Assembly: GCA_029261055.1 (NCBI GenBank)
Contig: JAJDCA010000038.1
Span: forward strand, 9,619-73,618
Length of the DNA: 64,000 nt
Direction of reading: 5' to 3'
Source of the DNA: Candidatus Omnitrophota bacterium
GTDB taxonomy: Bacteria > Omnitrophota > Gorgyraeia > Zapsychrales > Zapsychraceae
Numbering within the stretch: position 1 is the stretch's first letter; every line of letters begins with the position of its first letter. Below are positions 1,074-51,080 of this stretch, piece by piece. Position numbers and translations under genes: made by a program. The notes below the pieces were generated by a model. The model saw only the letters and a program-made list of their open reading frames with translations. It was not told where the DNA came from and ran no database searches.

Positions 1074-3116
1074 TTATTCTGAAACTCTCATGACAAATGG
1101 AAGATTGTTAATAGGCATCACTTCAAAAATAAAAGGAACAAGCCCACGCACCTCAATATTTTTCCAATTTTCCGTATTCTCCAAACTCAATGATGCTGCA
1201 TCTACACTCTCACCTTGATGCTCCCATTGAAGTTTCTGTGGATTTAAATCAATCCCGCCTTTTTTATGCTTTTCCAATTTATTATCTAAAGAATGACCAT
1301 ATTTTTCGTCGCTAATCATGGCATGATCGTTAACCTTGTATTTCTTTCTTAATGCCTGAATTATTTTTCTTTGTTCTATAAAAAAATTATCCACAACTTC
1401 CTCAGTAATAATTTTTCCTTTAAATTCATCCCGTTTACTTTTATCCTTATGCCCTAAAGTAATTATTTTACTTTTTAAATTTTCTTGTTTGTACAACTCA
1501 TCTTTAAATTTATCAATAAGTTTTTGAATGGCAAATACTCGTAATTGTGTTCCCACCTCAGAGTACTTTCTTTCTTTGCTTACACTTCTGTTCCAAGGGG
1601 CAATTTCCATGATACTCGTAGGTTCACTTCCATTTAAATCAGCCCATCCCTCGACCGCACCCTTATCTTCTGAAAAAACAAAATAAACATCAGACATTTC
1701 CTCTTTTTCTTGATATTCAACATGTGAAATAAATTTTACAACATCAGGCCAATGCCTTACCTGACTATCATTCTTATACTTCAACCACTCTACCAAACTT
1801 TCAATAGTTTTCTTTCTTTGATCATCGTTTAATTCTGCTCCATTAACAACATGAAGTTTAACCAAATACTTTTCATCTACATTGTTCCGCAATGCGACTA
1901 GTGTATTATTGTAATTTTGAACATTGTTCAGCTTACTCGCCAACATACTCAAATCACCAATAATTTTAAAATCTTCTTTTGCTTTTGTTTTCACCGGTAT
2001 ATTGTACTTGCCGCTAATTTTGATTCCTCCGGAAAAATATTTTCTTGGGATGATTTGGCCGGTGACTGTGTCGTAATCTTCTTTGATTAAATCATGCGTA
2101 CCTCGACGAAAAGAAATGAGGTATCGCTCGTAAATTTTATTCTTCACACCCTTATTTTCAATCGTAATACCTTCAATATTTTTTTGATCAGAATATTTCT
2201 GATTAATCAGGCTTGCCTTGAATTTCTTTTTGTACCAAGCAGCAAGAATCAAAGAGTTATAAATTTGGCGGAGTTTGGCAAAATTCTTTCCTTCATTCAC
2301 TTCCTGTTCAATGATGGGAATGATAATTTCTCTGATAATATCCGTTGTCATTTTATATTTCGTATTTCGCATATCGTATATTGCGCTTTTCTTTTCACTA
2401 CCTGTTCTTCCGTACTCACCTTCCGCTAAATAATCCTCTTGAAGCATGACCTTTAAATGTCCATCAATGACAAATACTCTATTACCATTTTCATACACTC
2501 GCGCCTTATCTGACACAATCCAAACCTTGTTAAAAGTATCCACTGGAATATCCGTTGTTCCGAAACGTTTGTATGCCTGTGCATACACCTTATCCCAAAA
2601 TTTTTCTCCTAACTCATATTCGGGATGCATCAAGGATGAGGTCAACTGCTTGAGCAAATAGTCCTGCGCGAGCAAGTCCCTCCCCATAGCGGTTTGGCCA
2701 AAAGCCTCTGGAATAATGCGGTCTTTTTCGTAGGGTGACAAATTTACCCACAAATCTTCTTCGGGAATAGACAAAGAAGCTAAAAAATATTTAATCAACC
2801 CTTGAGCTTCTCCACGTACTTGCTGTTCATTCAAGGTTGAATGCCCACTATCCAGAATAAAATCAAACCGAAACGGTTGATCCGGATTAATCACCAGCCC
2901 TCTTAACATCGGTGGGACAAAATTTTGACTTTGAATCACTCTCACCCCTAGCATAGGCAACCCCAGATCACCCCCCGAGGTTGATTTAGGTTGTTCCTGT
3001 GAAAAAACATACGCACCATTTACAACAAACCAAACTAAAACTAATAAAATAGATAATTTTAAAAAGGACCTGGGAGGTTTTCTGTAAAAATTTTTAATTT
3101 TATTCGTGTCCTGCAT
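1074..3116 (-). CDS. Secreted hypothetical protein. It is a paralogue of the N-terminal domain, and shares a short C-terminal motif, of the giant protein at 23122..30036.
   Basis: N-terminal signal/TM segment. About 330 aa are clearly alignable with the giant protein, for example GRDLLAQDYLLKQLTSSLMHPE vs GRDMLAQDYMLKQLTSSLMHPE and IIPRKYFSGGIKIS vs IIPRKYFSGGIEIS. The C-terminal GGIDLN...VRGLVPF motif is also shared. Confidence 0.7.
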   Translation of the reverse strand: MQDTNKIKNFYRKPPRSFLKLSILLVLVWFVVNGAYVFSQEQPKSTSGGDLGLPMLGVRVIQSQNFVPPMLRGLVINPDQPFRFDFILDSGHSTLNEQQVRGEAQGLIKYFLASLSIPEEDLWVNLSPYEKDRIIPEAFGQTAMGRDLLAQDYLLKQLTSSLMHPEYELGEKFWDKVYAQAYKRFGTTDIPVDTFNKVWIVSDKARVYENGNRVFVIDGHLKVMLQEDYLAEGEYGRTGSEKKSAIYDMRNTKYKMTTDIIREIIIPIIEQEVNEGKNFAKLRQIYNSLILAAWYKKKFKASLINQKYSDQKNIEGITIENKGVKNKIYERYLISFRRGTHDLIKEDYDTVTGQIIPRKYFSGGIKISGKYNIPVKTKAKEDFKIIGDLSMLASKLNNVQNYNNTLVALRNNVDEKYLVKLHVVNGAELNDDQRKKTIESLVEWLKYKNDSQVRHWPDVVKFISHVEYQEKEEMSDVYFVFSEDKGAVEGWADLNGSEPTSIMEIAPWNRSVSKERKYSEVGTQLRVFAIQKLIDKFKDELYKQENLKSKIITLGHKDKSKRDEFKGKIITEEVVDNFFIEQRKIIQALRKKYKVNDHAMISDEKYGHSLDNKLEKHKKGGIDLNPQKLQWEHQGESVDAASLSLENTENWKNIEVRGLVPFIFEVMPINNLPFVMRVSE

Positions 3117-5072: not shown

Positions 5073-6362
5073 ATGATTAAATCATCAAAAATTCTTTATG
5101 GAATATGTATTATTCTATTTTTTCTTTTCATCCGTATTTCTGACTCCCTTGCTGATAATTTAACAGATGAAGCGGCTCAATTATTTGACCAATGGCGAAG
5201 CGCTGTTTTTCAAGTCCGTGTCATTGATTTATCCACTCAAGAAAAATCTTCAACTGGATCTGGATTTTTTATTGACCCCAAGGGTTATGCCGTGACTAAC
5301 TATCATGTGGTCTCGTCCTATGTAAATAAACCAAGTAATCATAAAATTGAAATCATTAATCATGCAGGGGACATACAGGATCTTTCCTTGGTCTATTTTG
5401 ATATTGTCCATGACCTTGCTATTTTAACCACAAAAAAAGCCTCCCCCTTAACCTTATTGCTGAATCAGTCTGATCTTTCTCATGGAGAGAAAATTTTTTC
5501 CATGGGAAACCCGCATGACTTAGGTATGACCATTATCGAAGGAACATTTAATGGTTTAATGAAACAATCCTTAGACCGTAGGATCCTTTTCTCCGGATCC
5601 CTTAATCCTGGAATGAGTGGCGGCCCTACCCTTAATCATGAAGGAAAAATTATCGGAATTAATGTCTCAACAATGAACAATGATGTTAGCTTTCTTGTTC
5701 CTGTGGAATATTTAAATGCTTTAGTAGCTAAAATCGAACAAGAACCTGTTTTGCCTAACACAAATTGGGATCAACTAATCGAAAATCAATTAATTGAAAA
5801 TCAAGATCACTTTATCAATACTTACCTTAAACAAGAATGGCAAACTTCTAAACTTGGGGATGCCATCATTCCAGGAGAAATTTCCCCTTATGTAAAATGC
5901 TGGGGAGGCTCTAAAAACAGAGATGAAGATCTAATGATTAAAGCCATGACCAATTGTAGTACAGAAGATTATATTTATGTTAACGATTATTTTTATACAT
6001 CTTACTTGGATTATCGTTTCTCTTGGCATGAAAGTAAAAACCTTCATTTCCTTAGACTTTATGCCCATCTTCAGGATGATTTCCCAAAAATTAATTATTT
6101 AAATAATGCATCAAAAACTGATGTTGAACGATTTAAATGCCAAACTGATTTTGTTACCATGGATAACCGCGTTTTTAAAACAGCTTTGTGTTCCCGAAGA
6201 TATAAACGTTTTAAAAAATTGTATGATGTCAGTTTAGATTTTATGTCTGTAGACGAATATGATCGTTCATTAATGGGGGGATTAATATTAGAAGGTGTCA
6301 CAAAAACTAAAAGCCAAGAATTTATTAAATATTTTATGGAAAAAATACAATGGAAAAATTAG
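5073..6362 (+). CDS. Secreted trypsin-like (S1) serine protease with a C-terminal domain of unknown function
   Basis: Signal peptide. Catalytic triad context NYHVV (His), DLAIL (Asp) and GMSGGP (Ser). There is no PDZ domain. The roughly 200-aa C-terminal extension is unrecognised. Confidence 0.65.
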   Translation: MIKSSKILYGICIILFFLFIRISDSLADNLTDEAAQLFDQWRSAVFQVRVIDLSTQEKSSTGSGFFIDPKGYAVTNYHVVSSYVNKPSNHKIEIINHAGDIQDLSLVYFDIVHDLAILTTKKASPLTLLLNQSDLSHGEKIFSMGNPHDLGMTIIEGTFNGLMKQSLDRRILFSGSLNPGMSGGPTLNHEGKIIGINVSTMNNDVSFLVPVEYLNALVAKIEQEPVLPNTNWDQLIENQLIENQDHFINTYLKQEWQTSKLGDAIIPGEISPYVKCWGGSKNRDEDLMIKAMTNCSTEDYIYVNDYFYTSYLDYRFSWHESKNLHFLRLYAHLQDDFPKINYLNNASKTDVERFKCQTDFVTMDNRVFKTALCSRRYKRFKKLYDVSLDFMSVDEYDRSLMGGLILEGVTKTKSQEFIKYFMEKIQWKN

Positions 6363-7285
6363 TCATTGAAGTTATTAAACCAGGAAAAATGCACAATGAA
6401 TTTTGTGTATTCACTGGATCAACCATTCGTATTGGTCGTGGATTTAATAATGATGTCATTCTTGATGATGCCTTTGTTTCTTCTGAACATTGTGAAATTA
6501 TACGTGATGATGAAGGCATAAAAATAAAAGACTTAAACAGTAAAAATGGCATTTACAACATTAAAGCTAAACAAATCCAGACGGACCTGGCCATCCATTC
6601 AGGTGATAAATTTATTGTGGGCCGTACTGAATTGAGAGTTTATCTCTCTTCCCACACAGTTAAACCAGCTCGCCCACTTATCCCCCGACATAAAATCATC
6701 ACTGCACTTAGAAAACCAATAACAGCGTGGATTTTGTTTTCTTTATTAAGCGCTCTGGCCTATTTGACGGGAGTCATCACAACGATAGAAAACGGTAAAC
6801 AAGGACAGATAATATTAACAGCCGTTGTTATTACCGGTATTATGATCTTCTGGGCGGGATTTTGGGCTATTATTGGATGGATTAGCCGCCATAGATTGCG
6901 TTTTGGCATTCAATTGTCCATTGCCTGCCTCTGGTACATCCTTTATATGCTATGCTCATTTATTATTGATTATGCTGCTTTTTATTTTAACCGTAACCTT
7001 TTGTATGTCATTTTGATGGGGCTGTGTTTTACAATGATCACAATTTTAGGATATTTAGGACATCTGCACTTTGCCACACGGATGAAAACAAAAACAAAAA
7101 TAATTTCGGCGACTGTGATTACATTAATTATGTTGGGCCTATCCGGCGTGATTATGAACTTTTATCATGAATCTCAATATCTTCAAAAAGAATACTCTAG
7201 CTCTGTTAATCCTCCCTACCTTGGAAATCCCCCTGCTCATTCCATCGAAGAATTTATTCAAAAAACAAATAAAATTTTTGAATAA
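6350..7285 (+). CDS. FHA-domain membrane protein
   Basis: N-terminal FHA signature (IRIGRGFNNDVILDD..VSSEHCEI...DLNSKNG) followed by about 6 predicted TM helices. It overlaps the protease gene by 13 nt. Confidence 0.6.
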   Translation: MEKLVIEVIKPGKMHNEFCVFTGSTIRIGRGFNNDVILDDAFVSSEHCEIIRDDEGIKIKDLNSKNGIYNIKAKQIQTDLAIHSGDKFIVGRTELRVYLSSHTVKPARPLIPRHKIITALRKPITAWILFSLLSALAYLTGVITTIENGKQGQIILTAVVITGIMIFWAGFWAIIGWISRHRLRFGIQLSIACLWYILYMLCSFIIDYAAFYFNRNLLYVILMGLCFTMITILGYLGHLHFATRMKTKTKIISATVITLIMLGLSGVIMNFYHESQYLQKEYSSSVNPPYLGNPPAHSIEEFIQKTNKIFE

Positions 7286-22765: not shown

Positions 22766-23132
22766 TACAGATATCCTTATTTGGGTTCAACGCGGAAACC
22801 TGAAAGCTGCCAAACTTATTGAAAAATCTTCTAAACGTATTATTTCTATCTTCACCTACATGGAACTTCTACAACATGCCACTTCCAAAAAACAGCATCA
22901 ATACACTAAATCTTTTTTAACGGATTACAATTTTGAAGTTCTGCCTCTTACAGAAAATATTGGTCACCGCGCACTTATCTACCTCGAAGAATATGGATTA
23001 AGCACAGGACTGTCTGCAGCTGATGCCATTATTGCGGCGACGGCCGTTGAAAGTAACCTTGCTTTAGTAAGCGGCAATCAAAAACATTTTAAGGTAATTC
23101 GCGACCTGTCCTTACAAATCTTTAAACCTTAA
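22755..23132 (+). CDS. vapC: PIN-domain toxin VapC
   Basis: MIFDTDILIW, DAIIAATAV and NQKHF carry the PIN acidic residues. Confidence 0.75.
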   Translation: MIFDTDILIWVQRGNLKAAKLIEKSSKRIISIFTYMELLQHATSKKQHQYTKSFLTDYNFEVLPLTENIGHRALIYLEEYGLSTGLSAADAIIAATAVESNLALVSGNQKHFKVIRDLSLQIFKP

Positions 23133-26100
23133 ACGATTTCAGATTTTCATTTGGATCACGAGCGAGGATGTCATGTTGTGCATTAAGCCAAGCCTCTTCG
23201 TTTGGCAAATCTGATTCGCCTAACCCAAGCAACTGCACAACCGGCACAAACGTCACCCCGCGCAAAATCGGCACAAACCCTTTCACCCGCATACTCAAAT
23301 CCGCCGGCTGCATATCAAATGGCAACGGCACGCCGCGCCCATCCCGCCTAACCTGTAAATCCAACATCGCCGCATCCAAATTAATCCCACCGAGAGCATC
23401 TATCTGCGCGTCCCCTCCCTGAAAAACATCCACACCTTCAGATAACATGGCAATATCACCTTTTTTAAAACGAAAAAAGCCTTTCTTGAAATAAGAAGAG
23501 TCTTTATATTCTTCAATTTCCATCCCCTCGCTAGAATTAATAAACAATTTAACCCCGTCTACAATATTCCACAAAAAATCCTCCCCTAAATATTCCAGCT
23601 CCTCCCCTAAAACGACATAGTTGGGATAATTAAAAACCCCTTCATATTTTTCACGAACACCTTCGATAAACATAAAAAATTTCAATCCAAGAGCCTTTTG
23701 TCTATTCTCATCAGATCTTTTTTCGGCCTTACTTTTTAACTTCAAAGAAGAAAAGAAGTCCTTTAAAGAAGGTAAAATCCCTATCATTTTCCCTGGATAT
23801 CTATTTTGAAATTTTTTAATAGCCCCCAAAATATCTCCATCCTCTAAATTACGGACAATTCCCTTAAGCATGATTCTATCCCTATCTTTTTCGTCACCTG
23901 TATCCTGTTTTATATTCTCATCCTTAGCAAACCGTACAGCAAATTGTTTTTTCCTCGAAATAATAATCGTCCTTTCTTTACGCCCGTTATATTCTTCAAA
24001 TTTAAGCTTATATTCGTTCCGATTCTTCTGATCTTGAATGATACGAACCTTTATATTTTTTTTGCTCTTGATATCATAAAATACTGTTCCATAGTACAGC
24101 CCTGTTATCCAGTCATCCTTGTGAGTTAAATTTCTAAGAAGAAAATTCTCAGCCTCATTAGTATGCTTCCCATTCATGTCTTTATTACTAACACTCTGAT
24201 ACGCATCAACAATAAATTTTCTATCTTCATTTCCCACCTGTTCATCTGTCACTTCCCCCATCATCGCAAAATCCGCCTCGCCTACTATGACGTCCAGCAT
24301 ACGGATGATGCGGTCGTAGATACTTTCCTCATAAAAATTTAAATCAGAATCTTGATCAGAATCGTAGAAATCATACTTTTTAATAATCGTCGTTAATTCT
24401 CCACCTCTAATATCCTCAATCAATTTCGACATTTGACCAACCTTACGCTGACCATTCGTCCTCATATCACTTACAAAACCTTGCCAGGATTGCCTTTCCT
24501 TTTTCCAGTATTCCTCGTCTTTTTCCAGATCACTATTCCATCCTGACCCTGATGACACCTGATATAAAGGAAAGAACCTCTCAAAATACTCGCTATCCCA
24601 CTGAGCCAGCTGATTGCCGTAATTAGCTAAATTTCTTTCCATTTCATCAACAACCATCTTTTGACCTTTAAATGTCATCTCAATAATAGTCGTCAATTCC
24701 AAGAAAATACGCCTTTCCGACAAATGTGCCGTCTTAAGTGATTCAATTAACCGTGACTTTTTCTTCTTATCAAGTACATTTATAATAATGTTCCTTAAAA
24801 AGTCTTTACCCGAATTATCTAAGCCATAGTGGTAAATATTTTTTTGTTGCAAATGATCTTCTGAAATACTTTTACCAAAAGTACCATCATCCTGAATCCT
24901 ACGGATAAAATTCGCCGTATCCTGAAACAAATCAGGATCGCTTGTTTTTATTTTCTTTAAATACGCATTAACTCTATTTTCCAACTTCTTTTTCAAGTGC
25001 GTAACGGCATTAAATATACTTGCGGTCTTCTCCTGATCACGCCCGTGATCCACATACCCAAAACTTAAATAATACCCAACACCTTCATCAAACAACACAT
25101 CCTTCCCCATCAAACGCTGCACTTCATGAACAATTTCTTCAGGAGTTGTTATTCCTGATAAAATAAAATTAGAATCGATTATCTTCCCAACAGCTTCATC
25201 GATTTCCATAAACATCGCCACATCACCCTCATTTTCTTCACTCTTCCCTAAAACCCCCTGTACTTTTTGCGTTAATTCATCGATGCTAGTAATACTAACA
25301 ACATCTTTAACATTATTATGCAGCTCCATAATCGCCTCTTTTAGATAAGGATGCGCTAAAACAAAAACTGGAATATTGCGACCTATATCATCTGCATTTA
25401 ACCACTCTAAAAAAACATCTGAAGTATAATATGCAGGCACATTTTCATCAAACACACCCTCATCAAACACTTCTCCTGCGATCACTAAATCTATTTTTGT
25501 ATCCTCATCTTTAATCACGTCACGCGCCTGTTGTTGCGTTGTGATAAAAATAAGTTCATATCCTTTATCGGACAAAGCATTTTTAATCATTTCTTGATTT
25601 TTTTCCGATTTCTCCATCACAGCAATCACCGGAAGCCCCGTCTTTTTTTTCTCCTTAACAGTTTTCATATTGCCTGTAGTCTGTGAGTTCCCATTGTTCA
25701 AAGAATTTTTAATCTTGCCAAACTTCACTTCAAAAGGCCATTCTGAATTGATAATAATCTTTGTTATTTCACGAGGCTTCTGCCCTTCACTTTTTTTTAT
25801 TTCTTCAAACGTAATATGATACGTTATATCATTCTTTGAACGAATGACTTTAATATCCGCGTCTTTATGAGTTTTGGTATCCATAAATTTATCGACATCA
25901 TCCCTCTCAATTTTAACCTCACTTAAATTATTAACTAAAAACACATCCGCCTCATTGTGATTTCTTGAATTAATCCTGGCATCAACTACATTCAATATTT
26001 TCTGAATACCCGCCTTTTCCTCCAAAGATAACTCAGCATCACGTGCTTCCCCCATCATCGCATAATCCTGAAGAACCTTAAGAACGATCTTGGCCTCTGG

Positions 26101-29100
26101 CATGTCTAAATTTTTAAGAATGCGCCTTTTTGTATTTTCATCGATAATCATAAACTCATCATGACTTTGACCCGTAATCGCTTCATTAAACTTATTGCGA
26201 ATAAGCACTTCATTTTCTACACGATTACGTCCTAAATCAGCAATATTACCAAGCAAATGTATCCTTTGTTCTTGCTGTTCAAGAACATGCTCGATCATTT
26301 TTCGTGCTCGCTGTTGATATTTCTGAATAATTTTTTCCGGTAATTTAAGGTCATAACTATCTGATCCATCTGGTTGACTAAACAACCATGTTATTTTCTT
26401 ATTTTTCATATCTTTTAAAAAATAAATGGTCTTATTTAATGGAGGCACAATCAAACTACTTAACCACTTGCCTTTATATGGAATAAGACTACTATTTTTA
26501 TCAATATCCACATTAACATATTCTTTCGGCATAGAAATTTCTAAAATTCCGTAATACAAAATAGTTTCATGAATTTCCGACAAAGATACTTTTGAAGTAA
26601 CCATATTATGAATTTTCATAAAACTCAAATTAATCTCCTGTTGCTTGCTTTGATCAAACAGATCAGTTAATTTTTCATAAACTGTATTTGAATCTATATG
26701 CTCATTGATAATACCTAACGCTTGTCGATACACATCACTCATGAGACTTTCTAAAACATCGGGAAAAAATAATTGATTCACTGCATCCATCTCCTGTTCC
26801 ATTTTTTCCATAAATTCAATTAATTCCGGCGTAGACTCTTCATCATATCGTAGTTCCTCAATATCTTCTATTTTTCTGGAAATACTCGCCCCTCTTGTAT
26901 ACCCCGCAATTTTCCATTTTCTAAATACTTCCATCCCAGCTAATTTATTCGAAAGTTTTTCATTTTTCTGTTCTATTCTTTTAAGCTCTTCCGAAACATC
27001 ATCCAAAGTTAAATTTCTCTGCATGTCATTAATCATCGCATCATCCACAATCTGTTCTATAATTTCACTACCCTCAACAATAAGATAATATTTATCAGAA
27101 TTATCTGGTTTGTAGAACTTCTTTCGTGGTGATTCATTATTAACGAGCGTCTTAATTTCGCTCCTCTGTCCCTCAAGCTCTAACGGTAAAAAATGAATAA
27201 ATCCTCCTTTAAGAATAATGACATCATTTTCTTCCTCAGTTAAAAAATCCAAGTCTTCGTAAGCTATCTCCGTCACCCTTGCATCAAGGTTAGGTTCAAT
27301 TTCTTCTTTTATGTCCTGTAATATGTTTGTTCGTGTTAATCGTGAAGGAGGATTTCTCTTTTCTTTGCTTGATAATCCTCGCCTCTCTAGCAGCCTTTGA
27401 TAAGCCAGTGCATTACTACTGAAAAGACCTTTGTTCTTCTCTAGCGCATTTTCAATAATTTTAATCCATTCCTCCACTTCATTATGATCTTTAGCCCAAG
27501 ATTTACCTGGGGGTATTTTTTTTATTGCCTTAAACGCTGCCAAAATCCCCATCTCCGTTAACTCTTCCGAGATCATCTGAACACTTTCCGCTTGAAAATC
27601 CTGATTCTTCTTATCCAAACGATTACGAACATCGCTATCTAAATCAATAATTACAAAAGGGGCTTGGAACTCATCGTACGTATCCCAGACATAACCCACG
27701 CGATTCACATAAGGCTTTAGCCACTCAAACAACTTCTCCTTGTCCCACACCCCCCACTCAACCGATCCACCCTGATCAACGATTAGCACACGCCTATTAT
27801 TAACCAATATTTTATCTAATTCTCCCTTTTCTATAGGCAATATGCCGCGTACGTTGACGGATGCCTCCACTCCTTCACGCTCAATTTCTTCTTTGACATA
27901 AAGAGGGTTTGAAGGAAACAATTCCACAATTGTGTTTAAATCAACATAATTAGCTCCTGTAAACCACGAAAAATTATCTGCCACTCTAATATTATTAAAC
28001 AAATCCTCACGGGATAAGGGCAATGAAGGATCTAAAGAAAATTCAAAAACTTCTTCATTTAATAAATTAACCTTATTTAAACGCACTTCACGCTTAACAT
28101 ACTCATAACTCAAATCATCATCACCGCCTAATCCAAGCTCGTTCACTGACCCACTATCACCCAAAGGTAACTCTCTGATTTCACCCTGCCGTTTTTGTAC
28201 AAAAGAAGATACAGCTTTATTTCCAAAAACCCCGTCAAAAAACTCATCTACACGATGCCATAGAATGTCATCTTCCCTTAACCTTTCACTAAGACTCGTC
28301 TTGGCCAACATCCCTAAAATTCTTATCCCTGCAATTAAATTTGGAACCTTATCGCTATGATGCAAAAGATAATTAATCAACACGGGATTAAGAACCTCAT
28401 GCCCAAGATCATATTTTGCCACCATACGCGCCAATGCCCCTAACGCCGAAAGCAACCTTCTCTCATCTTCCGGCTGTGCTTCGGGCAAAGTAGACACATA
28501 ATATGCACGCAAAAATATATCCCCCAAAAACTCTTTGATCTCTATCGTTAAATCATGATTTTCAATACTTTCCCAAAACCCGGGCACATTCAAAAAGCCT
28601 TCCAGCACTTTCCTGCGTAAAGGATGTGCAGATTGCTCATATTTTTGCCATGACATTCTTCCTACCTTATTAGCCTCAAATTCTATTGAGTCAGTATTTC
28701 CTCGGTTTATTTTTTCTTTCAAATGAGTGTTAATATCCCTAAAAATAGCCTCCACATTCAACATCGCAGAATCCTGTTCCCTCCCTGCTAAATTAAAAAT
28801 ATCCAGGTGTCGTGACGTAGCCGCCTCTTCCCCCAAACTCGCCAAATCAACTGTGGCGCTCATGGCGCTTTCAGAAATAAATATGGTTGCGACGTCGTTG
28901 ATCTGTATATCGGTTGGGTCGAGTGTGGTGAGCATGGCAAGACTGATTTCTATCCCGCCGGAGAAGTATTTGCGGGGGATGATTTGGTCGGTCGCGGCGT
29001 CGTAGTCCTCTTTGATGTAATCGTAAACACCTTTGCGGAATGAATCGAGATATTGGTCGTAGATTTTTTGTGTCATTTGTTTATCTTCGGTGTCGATGCC

Positions 29101-30036
29101 TTTGATTTTGTTTTGATCGACATAGACTTGTCCTAACAGCGATTGTTTGAGGTTTTGTTTGTACCACGCGGCGAGGATCATGGCATGATAAATCTGACGG
29201 AGATTGGCAAAAGTTTTGCCTTCGTTGACTTCGTGTTCGATGGCGGGTAACAAAATATCGCGAATGATAGACGTTGTAATATTTGAATGCGTAGGGGTAT
29301 GATTTATCATGCCCTTGTCTTGGGTTTGATGAATCAAACCCCTACGATCCGCATGTTCCATCGCTAAATAATCTTCCTCCAACATCACCTTCAAATGACT
29401 CTCCAACACATAGGTCGTGGCGGTGGCTTCGTGTTCATAGACGACAGCCTTCTCCGGTACGATCCATACTTTGTGAAAGGTATCCATTGGGATATCTGTC
29501 GTACCGAATTCAGCCTGTGCGCGTTCGTAAACACGCGTCCAAAATTCTTCCCCTAAATCTTCTTCCGGATGCATCAACGATGAGGTCAGCTGTTTCAACA
29601 TATAATCTTGCGCAAGCATGTCGCGCCCCATATCTGTTTCGCCTAACCCTCCGGCGATAATGCGATCCGGTTCATTCGGGCTTAAATTCACCCACATTTC
29701 TTTCTCCGGAACCGTCAAAGCAGCCAAAAAATATTTGACGAGTTTGGTGATTTCCGTATTCAAGGCTTCACCTTGCGGCATCGCCGTATCTCCGGAATCA
29801 ATAATAAAATTGAATTTAAGCGGATTATCGGGATGGATGGTAATACCACGCACCATTGTAGGCATAAATGCATCAGTCGGCCCCACAAAACTTCCGGGTA
29901 TCGGCAGGTTTACTACAGATTGTGCTGGCATCTGCGCATAACCTGGAGGAACTAAAGTGATCATTATAAAGACAATCACCATAAAAAAAGATAGAATTCG
30001 ATAAAAAACCTTCATTTTTTTGTGTTCTTTAAACAT
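23122..30036 (-). CDS. Giant secreted multidomain protein (2304 aa) of unknown function
   Basis: Uninterrupted 6.9-kb ORF with an N-terminal signal peptide. Residues 40-380 are paralogous to ORF 1074..3116. There is an internal duplication (..DYAMMGEARDAE.. / ..DFAMMGEVTDEQ.. units). There is a degenerate receiver-like region (VIAVMEKSEK...IDLVIAGE...). The C-terminal GGINLD...VKGFVPI motif is shared with the paralogue. Confidence 0.8.
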   Translation of the reverse strand: MFKEHKKMKVFYRILSFFMVIVFIMITLVPPGYAQMPAQSVVNLPIPGSFVGPTDAFMPTMVRGITIHPDNPLKFNFIIDSGDTAMPQGEALNTEITKLVKYFLAALTVPEKEMWVNLSPNEPDRIIAGGLGETDMGRDMLAQDYMLKQLTSSLMHPEEDLGEEFWTRVYERAQAEFGTTDIPMDTFHKVWIVPEKAVVYEHEATATTYVLESHLKVMLEEDYLAMEHADRRGLIHQTQDKGMINHTPTHSNITTSIIRDILLPAIEHEVNEGKTFANLRQIYHAMILAAWYKQNLKQSLLGQVYVDQNKIKGIDTEDKQMTQKIYDQYLDSFRKGVYDYIKEDYDAATDQIIPRKYFSGGIEISLAMLTTLDPTDIQINDVATIFISESAMSATVDLASLGEEAATSRHLDIFNLAGREQDSAMLNVEAIFRDINTHLKEKINRGNTDSIEFEANKVGRMSWQKYEQSAHPLRRKVLEGFLNVPGFWESIENHDLTIEIKEFLGDIFLRAYYVSTLPEAQPEDERRLLSALGALARMVAKYDLGHEVLNPVLINYLLHHSDKVPNLIAGIRILGMLAKTSLSERLREDDILWHRVDEFFDGVFGNKAVSSFVQKRQGEIRELPLGDSGSVNELGLGGDDDLSYEYVKREVRLNKVNLLNEEVFEFSLDPSLPLSREDLFNNIRVADNFSWFTGANYVDLNTIVELFPSNPLYVKEEIEREGVEASVNVRGILPIEKGELDKILVNNRRVLIVDQGGSVEWGVWDKEKLFEWLKPYVNRVGYVWDTYDEFQAPFVIIDLDSDVRNRLDKKNQDFQAESVQMISEELTEMGILAAFKAIKKIPPGKSWAKDHNEVEEWIKIIENALEKNKGLFSSNALAYQRLLERRGLSSKEKRNPPSRLTRTNILQDIKEEIEPNLDARVTEIAYEDLDFLTEEENDVIILKGGFIHFLPLELEGQRSEIKTLVNNESPRKKFYKPDNSDKYYLIVEGSEIIEQIVDDAMINDMQRNLTLDDVSEELKRIEQKNEKLSNKLAGMEVFRKWKIAGYTRGASISRKIEDIEELRYDEESTPELIEFMEKMEQEMDAVNQLFFPDVLESLMSDVYRQALGIINEHIDSNTVYEKLTDLFDQSKQQEINLSFMKIHNMVTSKVSLSEIHETILYYGILEISMPKEYVNVDIDKNSSLIPYKGKWLSSLIVPPLNKTIYFLKDMKNKKITWLFSQPDGSDSYDLKLPEKIIQKYQQRARKMIEHVLEQQEQRIHLLGNIADLGRNRVENEVLIRNKFNEAITGQSHDEFMIIDENTKRRILKNLDMPEAKIVLKVLQDYAMMGEARDAELSLEEKAGIQKILNVVDARINSRNHNEADVFLVNNLSEVKIERDDVDKFMDTKTHKDADIKVIRSKNDITYHITFEEIKKSEGQKPREITKIIINSEWPFEVKFGKIKNSLNNGNSQTTGNMKTVKEKKKTGLPVIAVMEKSEKNQEMIKNALSDKGYELIFITTQQQARDVIKDEDTKIDLVIAGEVFDEGVFDENVPAYYTSDVFLEWLNADDIGRNIPVFVLAHPYLKEAIMELHNNVKDVVSITSIDELTQKVQGVLGKSEENEGDVAMFMEIDEAVGKIIDSNFILSGITTPEEIVHEVQRLMGKDVLFDEGVGYYLSFGYVDHGRDQEKTASIFNAVTHLKKKLENRVNAYLKKIKTSDPDLFQDTANFIRRIQDDGTFGKSISEDHLQQKNIYHYGLDNSGKDFLRNIIINVLDKKKKSRLIESLKTAHLSERRIFLELTTIIEMTFKGQKMVVDEMERNLANYGNQLAQWDSEYFERFFPLYQVSSGSGWNSDLEKDEEYWKKERQSWQGFVSDMRTNGQRKVGQMSKLIEDIRGGELTTIIKKYDFYDSDQDSDLNFYEESIYDRIIRMLDVIVGEADFAMMGEVTDEQVGNEDRKFIVDAYQSVSNKDMNGKHTNEAENFLLRNLTHKDDWITGLYYGTVFYDIKSKKNIKVRIIQDQKNRNEYKLKFEEYNGRKERTIIISRKKQFAVRFAKDENIKQDTGDEKDRDRIMLKGIVRNLEDGDILGAIKKFQNRYPGKMIGILPSLKDFFSSLKLKSKAEKRSDENRQKALGLKFFMFIEGVREKYEGVFNYPNYVVLGEELEYLGEDFLWNIVDGVKLFINSSEGMEIEEYKDSSYFKKGFFRFKKGDIAMLSEGVDVFQGGDAQIDALGGINLDAAMLDLQVRRDGRGVPLPFDMQPADLSMRVKGFVPILRGVTFVPVVQLLGLGESDLPNEEAWLNAQHDILARDPNENLKSFKV

Positions 30037-50776: not shown

Positions 50777-51080
50777 TGGTTGCGGGGACCGGATTTGAAC
50801 CGATGACCTTCAGGTTATGCATACCAACTATGGCTTTCGCCACTAGGCGACAAATTAAAAATTTGTCGCTTATTTGTGGTCTGGACTATCCCTTTACCCT
50901 TTCGGGTATCCGCCTACTAGTCTCTACACCTTCTCCGACAAACTTTTTCAAGTTTGTCTTCGTTTGGCTCGGGATTACCATGTTAAAGGCTTCCCCGAAT
51001 TTGACGGATGTTAACCAGATTGTTTCCAACCTGGGGGCCCACTTTGAGCCTGACGAGCTACCTGACTGCTCCACCCCGCG
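50777..51080 (-). tRNA. Initiator tRNA-fMet(CAU) gene interrupted by a group I intron. Exons lie at 51047..51080 and 50777..50819.
   Basis: The joined exons give CGCGGGGTGGAGCAGTCAGGTAGCTCGTCAGGCT|CATAACCTGAAGGTCATCGGTTCAAATCCGGTCCCCGCAACCA. This is 77 nt and near-identical to E. coli tRNA-fMet, including C1:A72 and three G-C pairs in the anticodon stem. The 227 nt between them separate the anticodon-loop halves. Confidence 0.85.
50820..51046 (-). ncRNA. Group I self-splicing intron (227 nt) in the tRNA-fMet anticodon loop, between U33 and C34
   Basis: The 5' exon ends in U. The intron ends in G (..GGTATG|CATAA). A GGCC guide-like sequence near the intron 5' end can pair with the exon GGCU to form P1. 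There are R-like (GTAGAGACTAGTAGG) and S-like (AAAGGGATAGTCCAGACC) core elements. No ORF lies inside. Confidence 0.75.

Follow-up and report, generated by a model that had tools for sequence, protein, structure and literature searches.

We analysed a stretch of 64,000 nucleotides (nt), here called the window, from the genome assembly of a Candidatus Omnitrophota bacterium (GCA_029261055.1, contig JAJDCA010000038.1, positions 9,619 to 73,618 of the forward strand). The Omnitrophota are uncultured, ultra-small and probably predatory or epibiotic bacteria, which are noted for enormous multi-enzyme proteins. Two genes of the window, about 20 kb apart and both on the minus strand, are the subject here. 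Open reading frame (ORF) 1074..3116 starts with ATG and encodes 680 amino acids (aa) plus stop, which we call the small protein, while ORF 23122..30036 encodes 2,304 aa plus stop and is called the giant. The length of the giant is counted from the first ATG, whereas its public annotation (P0219) starts at Met8 and has 2,297 aa; the two versions differ by 30016..30036 of the minus strand.

Both genes are paralogues in an Omnitrophota-wide modular family, in which a signal peptide and a conserved head are followed by variable cargo and a conserved C-terminal tail. We found no published description of such a head-cargo-tail family in the Omnitrophota papers or by literature searches with terms and motif strings, and the motif strings of the family did not occur in the literature searched. 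The family is apparently undescribed.

A head and a tail common to both window proteins

The small protein starts with a predicted Sec-type signal peptide (residues 1-39; 3000..3116, minus strand like all coordinates of the two genes), which has a basic n-region, a hydrophobic h-region (hydrophobic segment 14-32; helix 16-40 in the AlphaFold2 (AF2) model) and ends in ...VFS/QEQ. Then comes the conserved head (40-364; 2025..2999), ending with RKYFSGG and delimited by its 51% identity to the giant, the family alignments and the AF2 model. Two short junction motifs, DLSML at 388 and DHAMI at 597, enclose one cargo module. The post-head motif (388-398, DLSMLASKLNN; 1923..1955) is a D-x-S-M variant and a confident beta strand in the AF2 model, and the pre-tail motif occupies residues 597-601 (1314..1328). 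The module between them (399-596; 1329..1922) has no match in Pfam, NCBIfam or PADLOC, low AF2 confidence and a GC content at third codon positions (GC3) of 0.25. The conserved tail (619-680; 1077..1262; KKGGIDLNPQKL...VRGLVPFIFEVMPINNLPFVM) closes the protein, and is marked both by a hidden Markov model (HMM) and by AF2.

The giant, whose extent follows from its ORF and BLASTP, has the same order of parts. A predicted signal peptide ending in ...PPGYA/Q (1-34; 29935..30036; hydrophobic segment 7-36) is followed by the conserved head (35-361; 28954..29934), identified by BLASTP, tblastn and the family alignment. The cargo region (426-2193; 23458..28761) is divided by the positions of its D-x-A-M motifs into about five modules of ~270-575 aa. 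These motifs lie at residues 422, 998, 1324, 1605, 1922 and 2194 (window coordinates 28762-28773, 27034-27045, 26056-26067, 25213-25224, 24262-24273 and 23446-23457, respectively), the first and the last being the flanks of the cargo. The conserved tail with a variable acidic extension (2215-2304; 23125..23394; LGGINLDAAMLDLQVRRDGRGVPLPF...VKGFVPILRGV...LLG) forms the C-terminus.

An earlier note, made from the sequence alone, had described the two proteins as a related head-tail pair, and this is confirmed for both ends, by pairwise alignment for the head and by profile alignment for the tail. In BLASTP, residues 6-368 of the small protein aligned to residues 7-365 of the giant with 190 identities in 369 positions (51%; E = 9e-115), which corresponds to the signal peptide plus head and includes both peptide pairs quoted in that note. 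The head contains 34 invariant columns in a family alignment of 121 members, which rules out a similarity limited to low-complexity or signal-peptide regions. The motifs WVNLSP, QDYxLKQ, FNKVWI, EVNEG...LRQ and RKYFSGG are present in both heads, directly after the Sec-type signal peptide.

The C-terminal motif that the same note had seen in both proteins is real, though not by direct comparison: GGIDLNPQ...VRGLVPFI against GGINLDAA...VKGFVPIL gave an insignificant E = 17 in BLASTP. We therefore relied on a tail HMM, for which the C-terminal ~65 residues of 79 further members were used and the two window proteins were left out. Among the 977 six-frame ORFs of the window it matched the C-termini of the small protein (E = 1.2e-16) and of the giant (E = 5.3e-11), and the next best ORF reached only E ~1. 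Since a model built without them matched only these two C-termini, the tail is common to both proteins. Its consensus, GGIDLNP...G-x-x-P-V-I-I-N-I-x-P...LLG, stands at the extreme C-terminus of each.

Outside the head, BLASTP found no significant pairwise similarity between the two proteins, middles included, and tblastn found no third head copy within the 64-kb window. About 250 residues of the small protein (about 369-617) separate head from tail and are unrelated to the middle of the giant. The view that the small copy lacks a middle must be given up, as it has a single orphan module of its own; nor is the giant a version with a hugely expanded central region, since the two middles are unrelated and represent interchangeable cargo.

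An Omnitrophota family with variable cargo and junction motifs

When the head was searched exhaustively with phmmer against 1.84 billion representatives of 50%-identity clusters, 7,898 of them matched at E <= 1e-3, and 6,137 still did so at E <= 1e-30. In these matches the head is always single and N-terminal, starting at residue ~2-82, and the lengths of the listed members range from ~400 to 5,358 aa. The family is thus not small, as had been supposed, and the giant with 2,304 aa is a mid-range member rather than an unusually large one. A word-index search with the small protein gave more than 3,166 matches, the best 120 of which cover only its first ~46-63%. Every named source organism belongs to the Omnitrophota, and some of the metagenome-assembled genomes (MAGs) are labelled “uncultured Planctomycetales”; the family is apparently Omnitrophota-specific. 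The identity of the head is 50-60% throughout the phylum.

Genomes contain several copies; in one MAG at least 7 loci were counted, and a single 92-kb contig bears three of these. Tandem arrangement is frequent: 12 of 79 loci contain two heads, and 9 further loci begin with the tail of an upstream member. Head and tail are coupled: of the 59 head ORFs in the related loci whose C-terminus is complete, 51 end with the tail, never more than 47 residues from the stop. Of the other 8, at least 2 are followed by a frame-shifted tail ORF. A tail-only word-index search, whose 168 candidates are not an unbiased sample, yielded only fragments of 57-114 aa. Two cases on long contigs that appeared to have a tail without a head were inspected and rejected: in P0252 a frame break has separated the tail from a long gene upstream, and P0238 comes from a contig that is fragmented and of low coverage.

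Some observations concern the tail itself. At L084 (JACRHP010000079.1, 5930..6004), a long member (2,176 aa or more), whose cargo includes FBPase and PGM, goes out of frame just before the tail, after an AVSSPM junction and at a 7-nt tandem repeat (cagtcac x3), and the tail is annotated as a separate ORF of 80 aa. Either a slippage-prone frameshift, a pseudogene or a faulty assembly may account for the break. The tail occurs in at least two flavours, “...LQTQG...” and “...LQ[IV]KRDG.G.P.P...”, as seen in the giant (2216-2240) and its relatives P0026, P0030, P0053, P0028, P0151 and P0194; the giant has the second one. Besides, the first strand of the tail (D/N-P/A-x-M/L-L) is similar to the D-x-A-M-L junction motif.

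The segments between head and tail differ greatly among members. Mutually unrelated Pfam domains lie downstream of the head in 37 of the 120 best members (31%), and the other 83 are without any Pfam domain. Among them are radical SAM/B12 proteins, methyltransferases, protein kinases, HATPase_c, GNAT, GT2, acyl-CoA dehydrogenase, aminotransferase, peptidases, TPR, HEAT, WD40, DnaJ, PP2C and others, as well as PGK and PGM. In the flanks that were sampled, the length of the cargo runs from 243 to over 1,900 aa. In the giant, the middle of 1,771 aa has no homologue at E <= 1e-5 in 5.8 billion proteins except its own database copy, its cargo has only a sub-threshold KaiA_N/receiver-like match in Pfam, and a search against PDB sequences found no relative. 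The middle of the small protein has no convincing homologue among its 120 best matches, where longer coverage reflects forced alignments. A GNAT cargo, hinted at by relative P0034, was rejected, because the alignment over the middle is forced and there is no Pfam match.

By the reading of the earlier note, the pair would be a small head-tail family local to the genome, and the giant would owe its size to an expanded common centre. Two window copies with common ends suggest as much, but there are thousands of members phylum-wide, their middles are dissimilar, self-BLASTP found no internal repeats in the giant at E <= 1e-3, and cargo of the above range of lengths is common. Such an origin is hardly credible.

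Base composition also separates the parts. GC3 of the giant is 0.33 in the cargo, 0.49 in the head and 0.54 in the tail; for the small protein the values are 0.25, 0.38 and 0.31, with a mean GC of 0.384 for the window. The cargo is more AT-rich than the ends, which indicates that the constant ends and the variable middle differ in evolutionary history or constraint. Relaxed constraint on the cargo, different origins of the parts, or gene conversion of the constant ends are possible causes of this mosaic.

The modules are delimited by a junction motif, D-x-A-M followed by a hydrophobic residue; other clades have S-S-P-V/I/L instead. The post-head sequences, 62,161 residues in all, contain 129 D.AM motifs, compared with 6.4 +/- 2.6 after shuffling (at most 15 in 200 shuffles), and 63 SSP[IVLAM] motifs, compared with 3.9 +/- 2.0; the heads contain 3 of each. 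Per 1,000 aa, the post-head regions have 1.55 D.AM and 0.67 SSP motifs, against 0.09 and 0.04 in neighbouring non-family ORFs. Overall the motifs are enriched about 17-20 times. They follow closely on RKYFSGG, separate the modules, and precede the GGIDLNP tail by 0-25 aa. Their number increases with protein length (r = 0.60), and the median spacing is 272 aa. In both window proteins the cargo is bounded in this manner, by D-x-A/S-M or SSP.

Pfam domains were found inside single modules in the members checked. For example, P0151 has PGM (1151-1636) inside module 878-1817 and PGK (1957-2184) inside module 1937-2447, and the REC domain of P0194 and the methyltransferase of P0168 also lie each within one module. 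At 75 motifs the choice of Ala and Asp codons equals the background usage, so the constraint at the junctions acts on the peptide. A DNA-level origin of the motif (recombination site, ribosome-binding remnant or internal start) was rejected on account of these codons and of the alternative SSP motif, which has no Met. The motifs are concrete candidates for cleavage or docking sites, and together with head and tail they define, in a form that can be searched for, a major part of the putatively exported proteome of Omnitrophota (~7,900 clusters).

Export signals, predicted structures and possible roles

To survey the topology, we used 198 members with complete N-termini. A hydrophobic h-region precedes the head in 189 of them, x-A-Q/E follows the h-region in 171, and 169 have no further strongly hydrophobic segment. 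The N-terminus plausibly fits a cleavable Sec signal peptide, in agreement with the earlier suggestion that the small protein is secreted. The giant has a single further hydrophobic segment (2254-2272), which is a tail strand, and neither window protein has extra transmembrane helices. In about 5-10% of members the first junction is directly followed by a basic stretch and a hydrophobic helix, in some cases with a lipobox-like L-x-x-C or an A-x-A; examples are P0058 (...LSVSLSSC), P0077 (...YLGAC), P0079, P0029, P0087, P0099 and P0102. The arrangement gives the impression of an entire captured pre-protein, or of a stop-transfer anchor.

The earlier note had doubted that HEVNEG, a motif in the head of the giant, marks a metalloprotease, and its doubt was justified. 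In 208 members the residue before EVNEG is K in 139, R in 40, Q in 13 and H in 6. With K or R in 179 of 208 and an HExxH in only one head, a zinc metalloprotease (zincin) was rejected; besides, the window proteins have no peptidase match in Pfam.

The head was modelled by AF2 from residues 41-372 of the small protein with a 121-sequence alignment. The model of this domain of ~320-330 aa is confident (predicted local distance difference test (pLDDT) 86, predicted template modelling score 0.86) and shows an alpha/beta fold composed of long helices and a pair of long beta hairpins. In Foldseek searches of PDB and BFVD nothing matched at E <= 0.001, the best template modelling score (TM-score) being 0.16, and the family profile found nothing real among PDB sequences, the sole match being huntingtin in misaligned cargo columns. 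No relative of the head was found in PDB, Pfam, NCBIfam, PHROGs or PADLOC. For the complete window proteins, scans of Pfam and NCBIfam gave no usable match and PADLOC gave none, and PHROGs gave one weak match (E = 0.002), in the cargo of the small protein, to a family of unassigned function. A head of ~320 aa that can be modelled confidently and has no structural relative in the libraries searched lends itself to experimental study of structure and function.

The helices and hairpins of the model recall a membrane-inserting, pore-forming translocator, distantly like the ClyA-family alpha-pore-forming toxins, that would move the cargo across a prey membrane; NheA, MakA, MakB, MakE, AhlB, Cry6Aa and colicin Ia came top in two independent Foldseek searches. 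However, all of these matches are at noise level (E >= 0.06, probability <= 0.18, TM-score <= 0.16), and the hairpins are polar rather than the hydrophobic tongues that characterise the ClyA family. We regard a pore-forming head as very improbable.

In the AF2 model of the full-length small protein, the cargo has a pLDDT of 28-65 and the tail one of 73-95, and the junction strand at 389-398 reaches ~87 between low-confidence flanks. A confident tail and junction strand would be expected if both pack on the head, and head and tail probably fold together. The same strands could instead enter the head of the next subunit by donor-strand-like beta augmentation, so that the proteins would assemble by themselves into a surface array or filament. 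Paralogues whose handles are identical would then be built together into one envelope layer bearing different cargo. The many paralogues per genome, with near-identical handles and differing cargo, would suit such a layer, and so would the absence of a dedicated partner gene; only with the head present does the prediction give confident beta strands for the tail and the junction, and a head conserved at the level given above across a phylum is unusual for a mere linker. Nevertheless, the proteins resemble neither pilins nor S-layer proteins nor any other fold known to polymerise, and enzymatic cargo of cytoplasmic type would be odd in a surface layer. A polymerising layer therefore appears improbable.

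The interpretation that we favour, and to which we assign about an even chance, is that these proteins are Sec-exported carrier scaffolds for variable payloads, with head and tail as constant handles and the junctions as docking or cleavage sites. The data establish the family and its architecture, the coupling of head and tail, the junction motif, the diversity of the cargo, and the lack of a conserved partner gene and of known homologues. For export, head-tail docking, junction processing and payload delivery or display we infer the following course. The head and tail would take the protein out of the cytoplasm and then position, assemble or deliver it. They would pack together and hold the cargo as a loop between them. 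The cargo would be the payload, one orphan module in the small protein and about five modules in the giant, and the junction motifs would be the points where modules dock or are released by proteolysis. Predatory or epibiotic nanobacteria might in this way deliver or display payloads. If so, the cargo list would be a catalogue of what the cells send to their hosts, consisting mostly of orphans together with kinases, methyltransferases, acetyltransferases, radical SAM enzymes and sugar-phosphate enzymes.

Several points weigh against a carrier. Export is predicted from features of the sequence, and the docking of head and tail is read from pLDDT values. A hydrophobic helix follows the head in about 10% of members, which would leave the head on one side of the membrane and cargo and tail on the other. 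The analysis found no partner that could serve as protease, transporter or receptor. Besides, many cargo domains are cofactor-dependent enzymes of cytoplasmic type, such as a radical SAM protein with an intact CxxxCxxC (P0046), PGK, PGM, FBPase, acyl-CoA dehydrogenase and aminotransferase, which would have no obvious activity after Sec export unless in the cytoplasm of another cell.

Such cargo fits delivery into another cell, and it also fits a bacterial polyprotein, in which independent proteins are fused and would be cut at the junctions, after the Ala of D-x-A-M or before S-S-P. Most products would act in the cytoplasm of the producer, some with their own signal peptide or lipobox, and the head would be a processing or assembly factor or a membrane tether. 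Modules coincide with whole Pfam enzymes, and among the cargo are the housekeeping types PGK, PGM, FBPase and radical SAM with intact cluster motif. Small residues, A-x-A-like, precede SSP, just as Ala stands at -1 in D-x-A-M, and the signal-peptide-like or lipobox-like stretches after the first junction in ~5-10% of members would suit such products. West-Roberts et al. 2023 (10.1101/2023.11.21.568195) suggested that Omnitrophota giants are cleaved, and stated that the cleavage points are unknown; there and in 10.64898/2026.06.07.730766, post-translational cleavage or a surface location is raised as an open question.

What speaks against a polyprotein is first the Sec-type signal peptide with basic n-region (N-in), with which 95% of members begin and which would export the remainder. 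The head has no protease motif or match to a protease-like fold, and the cargo is mostly orphan sequence, not housekeeping. Besides, an Omnitrophota preprint reports PGK and other lower-glycolysis genes in 176 of 176 complete genomes, where it is not stated whether these genes stand alone. On balance a polyprotein of cytoplasmic products is unlikely. A broader idea, which we put forward tentatively as possible rather than probable, is that head, tail and the D-x-A-M/S-S-P punctuation form the grammar of a phylum-specific polyprotein export and processing, perhaps also segmenting the giants of 10-147 kaa. Constant handles would then carry hypervariable or captured enzyme modules out of the cell, and the modules would be cut or docked at the punctuation. 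If true, it would be a new type of bacterial device for protein delivery or assembly without a homologue of known structure.

Known systems and neighbouring genes

The closest comparison is with the long and giant proteins of the Omnitrophota themselves (“Archaeovorins” and “multi-enzyme metabolic” proteins), which, by their descriptions, share with the family the phylum, an N-terminal signal peptide and much of the repertoire of domains (HATPase_c, radical SAM, GNAT, PGM, ROK, REC, HEAT/TPR and PPDK_N). The comparison is one of descriptions: the giants in those papers have at least 10 kaa, and in the passages retrieved from them there is no word of a conserved head or C-terminal tail, or of a junction motif. 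Archaeovorins, of at least 10 kaa, have many transmembrane helices and a tiling of HEAT, HATPase and radical-SAM domains, whereas the window proteins are far shorter and lack extra transmembrane helices.

In its layout the family functionally resembles four other groups of proteins, namely MARTX toxins, polymorphic toxins, passengers of the type IX secretion system (T9SS) and autotransporters, and LapA, although none of the membership features tested for these groups was found. MARTX toxins have constant N- and C-terminal regions around strain-variable effector modules, which are released at defined linker sites. The family likewise has constant ends around variable modules. However, MARTX and RTX proteins use type I secretion without a Sec signal peptide and have glycine-rich repeat ends and a cysteine protease domain, while the family has a Sec-type N-terminus; Pfam and NCBIfam detected neither RTX repeats nor a cysteine protease domain in the window proteins.

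Polymorphic toxins such as CdiA and Rhs consist of a constant trafficking part and a hypervariable payload separated by a short junction peptide (VENN, DPxGL), and occur with many paralogues and orphan payloads. The junction peptide is comparable to D-x-A-M or SSPV, and orphan payloads occur in the family too. In polymorphic toxins the variable part is C-terminal and an immunity gene comes next, whereas in the family it is internal and capped by the tail, with no conserved downstream gene (no conserved immunity gene in 79 loci); nor are the cargo domains typical toxins.

Proteins with a T9SS C-terminal domain, autotransporters and trimeric autotransporters also combine a signal peptide, a variable passenger and a conserved beta-rich C-terminal element. 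Unlike them, the family has a tail of only ~60 aa with a variable acidic extension and no terminal aromatic residue, and an obligatory head of 320 aa. Searches of Pfam and NCBIfam at E <= 1 found no Por_Secre_tail or TIGR04183-type domain of T9SS, and likewise no C-terminal beta-barrel, YadA anchor or Haemagg_act domain of two-partner secretion (type V); the head of the family is alpha/beta and not a beta helix.

LapA-type adhesins have an N-terminal retention module with a LapG cleavage site, a variable body and a C-terminal secretion signal, which recalls the head, the short putative cleavage motif, the variable body and the C-terminal element of the family. However, they are secreted by type I systems, rich in RTX repeats and without a Sec signal peptide, and Pfam and NCBIfam gave no homology to the family.

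Around both window members lie housekeeping genes with no relation to them (SUI1, SlyX, MnmC-like, topoisomerase, two-component system, ferredoxins and an RND pump). When the neighbours of the 79 loci were clustered, no conserved transporter, protease or immunity gene appeared as partner, and the commonest neighbour family was generic response regulators, present at 10 of 79 loci. A phage origin was rejected: there is no GenBank phage match, and 3 of 2.9 million IMG/VR contigs match the family.

Two further observations concern other parts of the window. At 5073..7285 on the plus strand, 2 kb from the small member, a Trypsin_2 serine protease gene and a gene for an FHA-domain protein overlap by 13 nt; we have no evidence of a link between this pair and the head-cargo-tail family. 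ARAGORN predicted no tRNA in the window, presumably because of a group I intron on the minus strand (Rfam RF00028; 50867..51065 within 50800..51078; 52.5 bits, E = 1.8e-10). The intron splits an apparent initiator tRNA-fMet gene, with the 5' exon cgcggggtggagcagtcaggtagctcgtcaggctca and a 3' exon ending in ...ataacctgaaggtcatcggttcaaatccggtccccgcaa.

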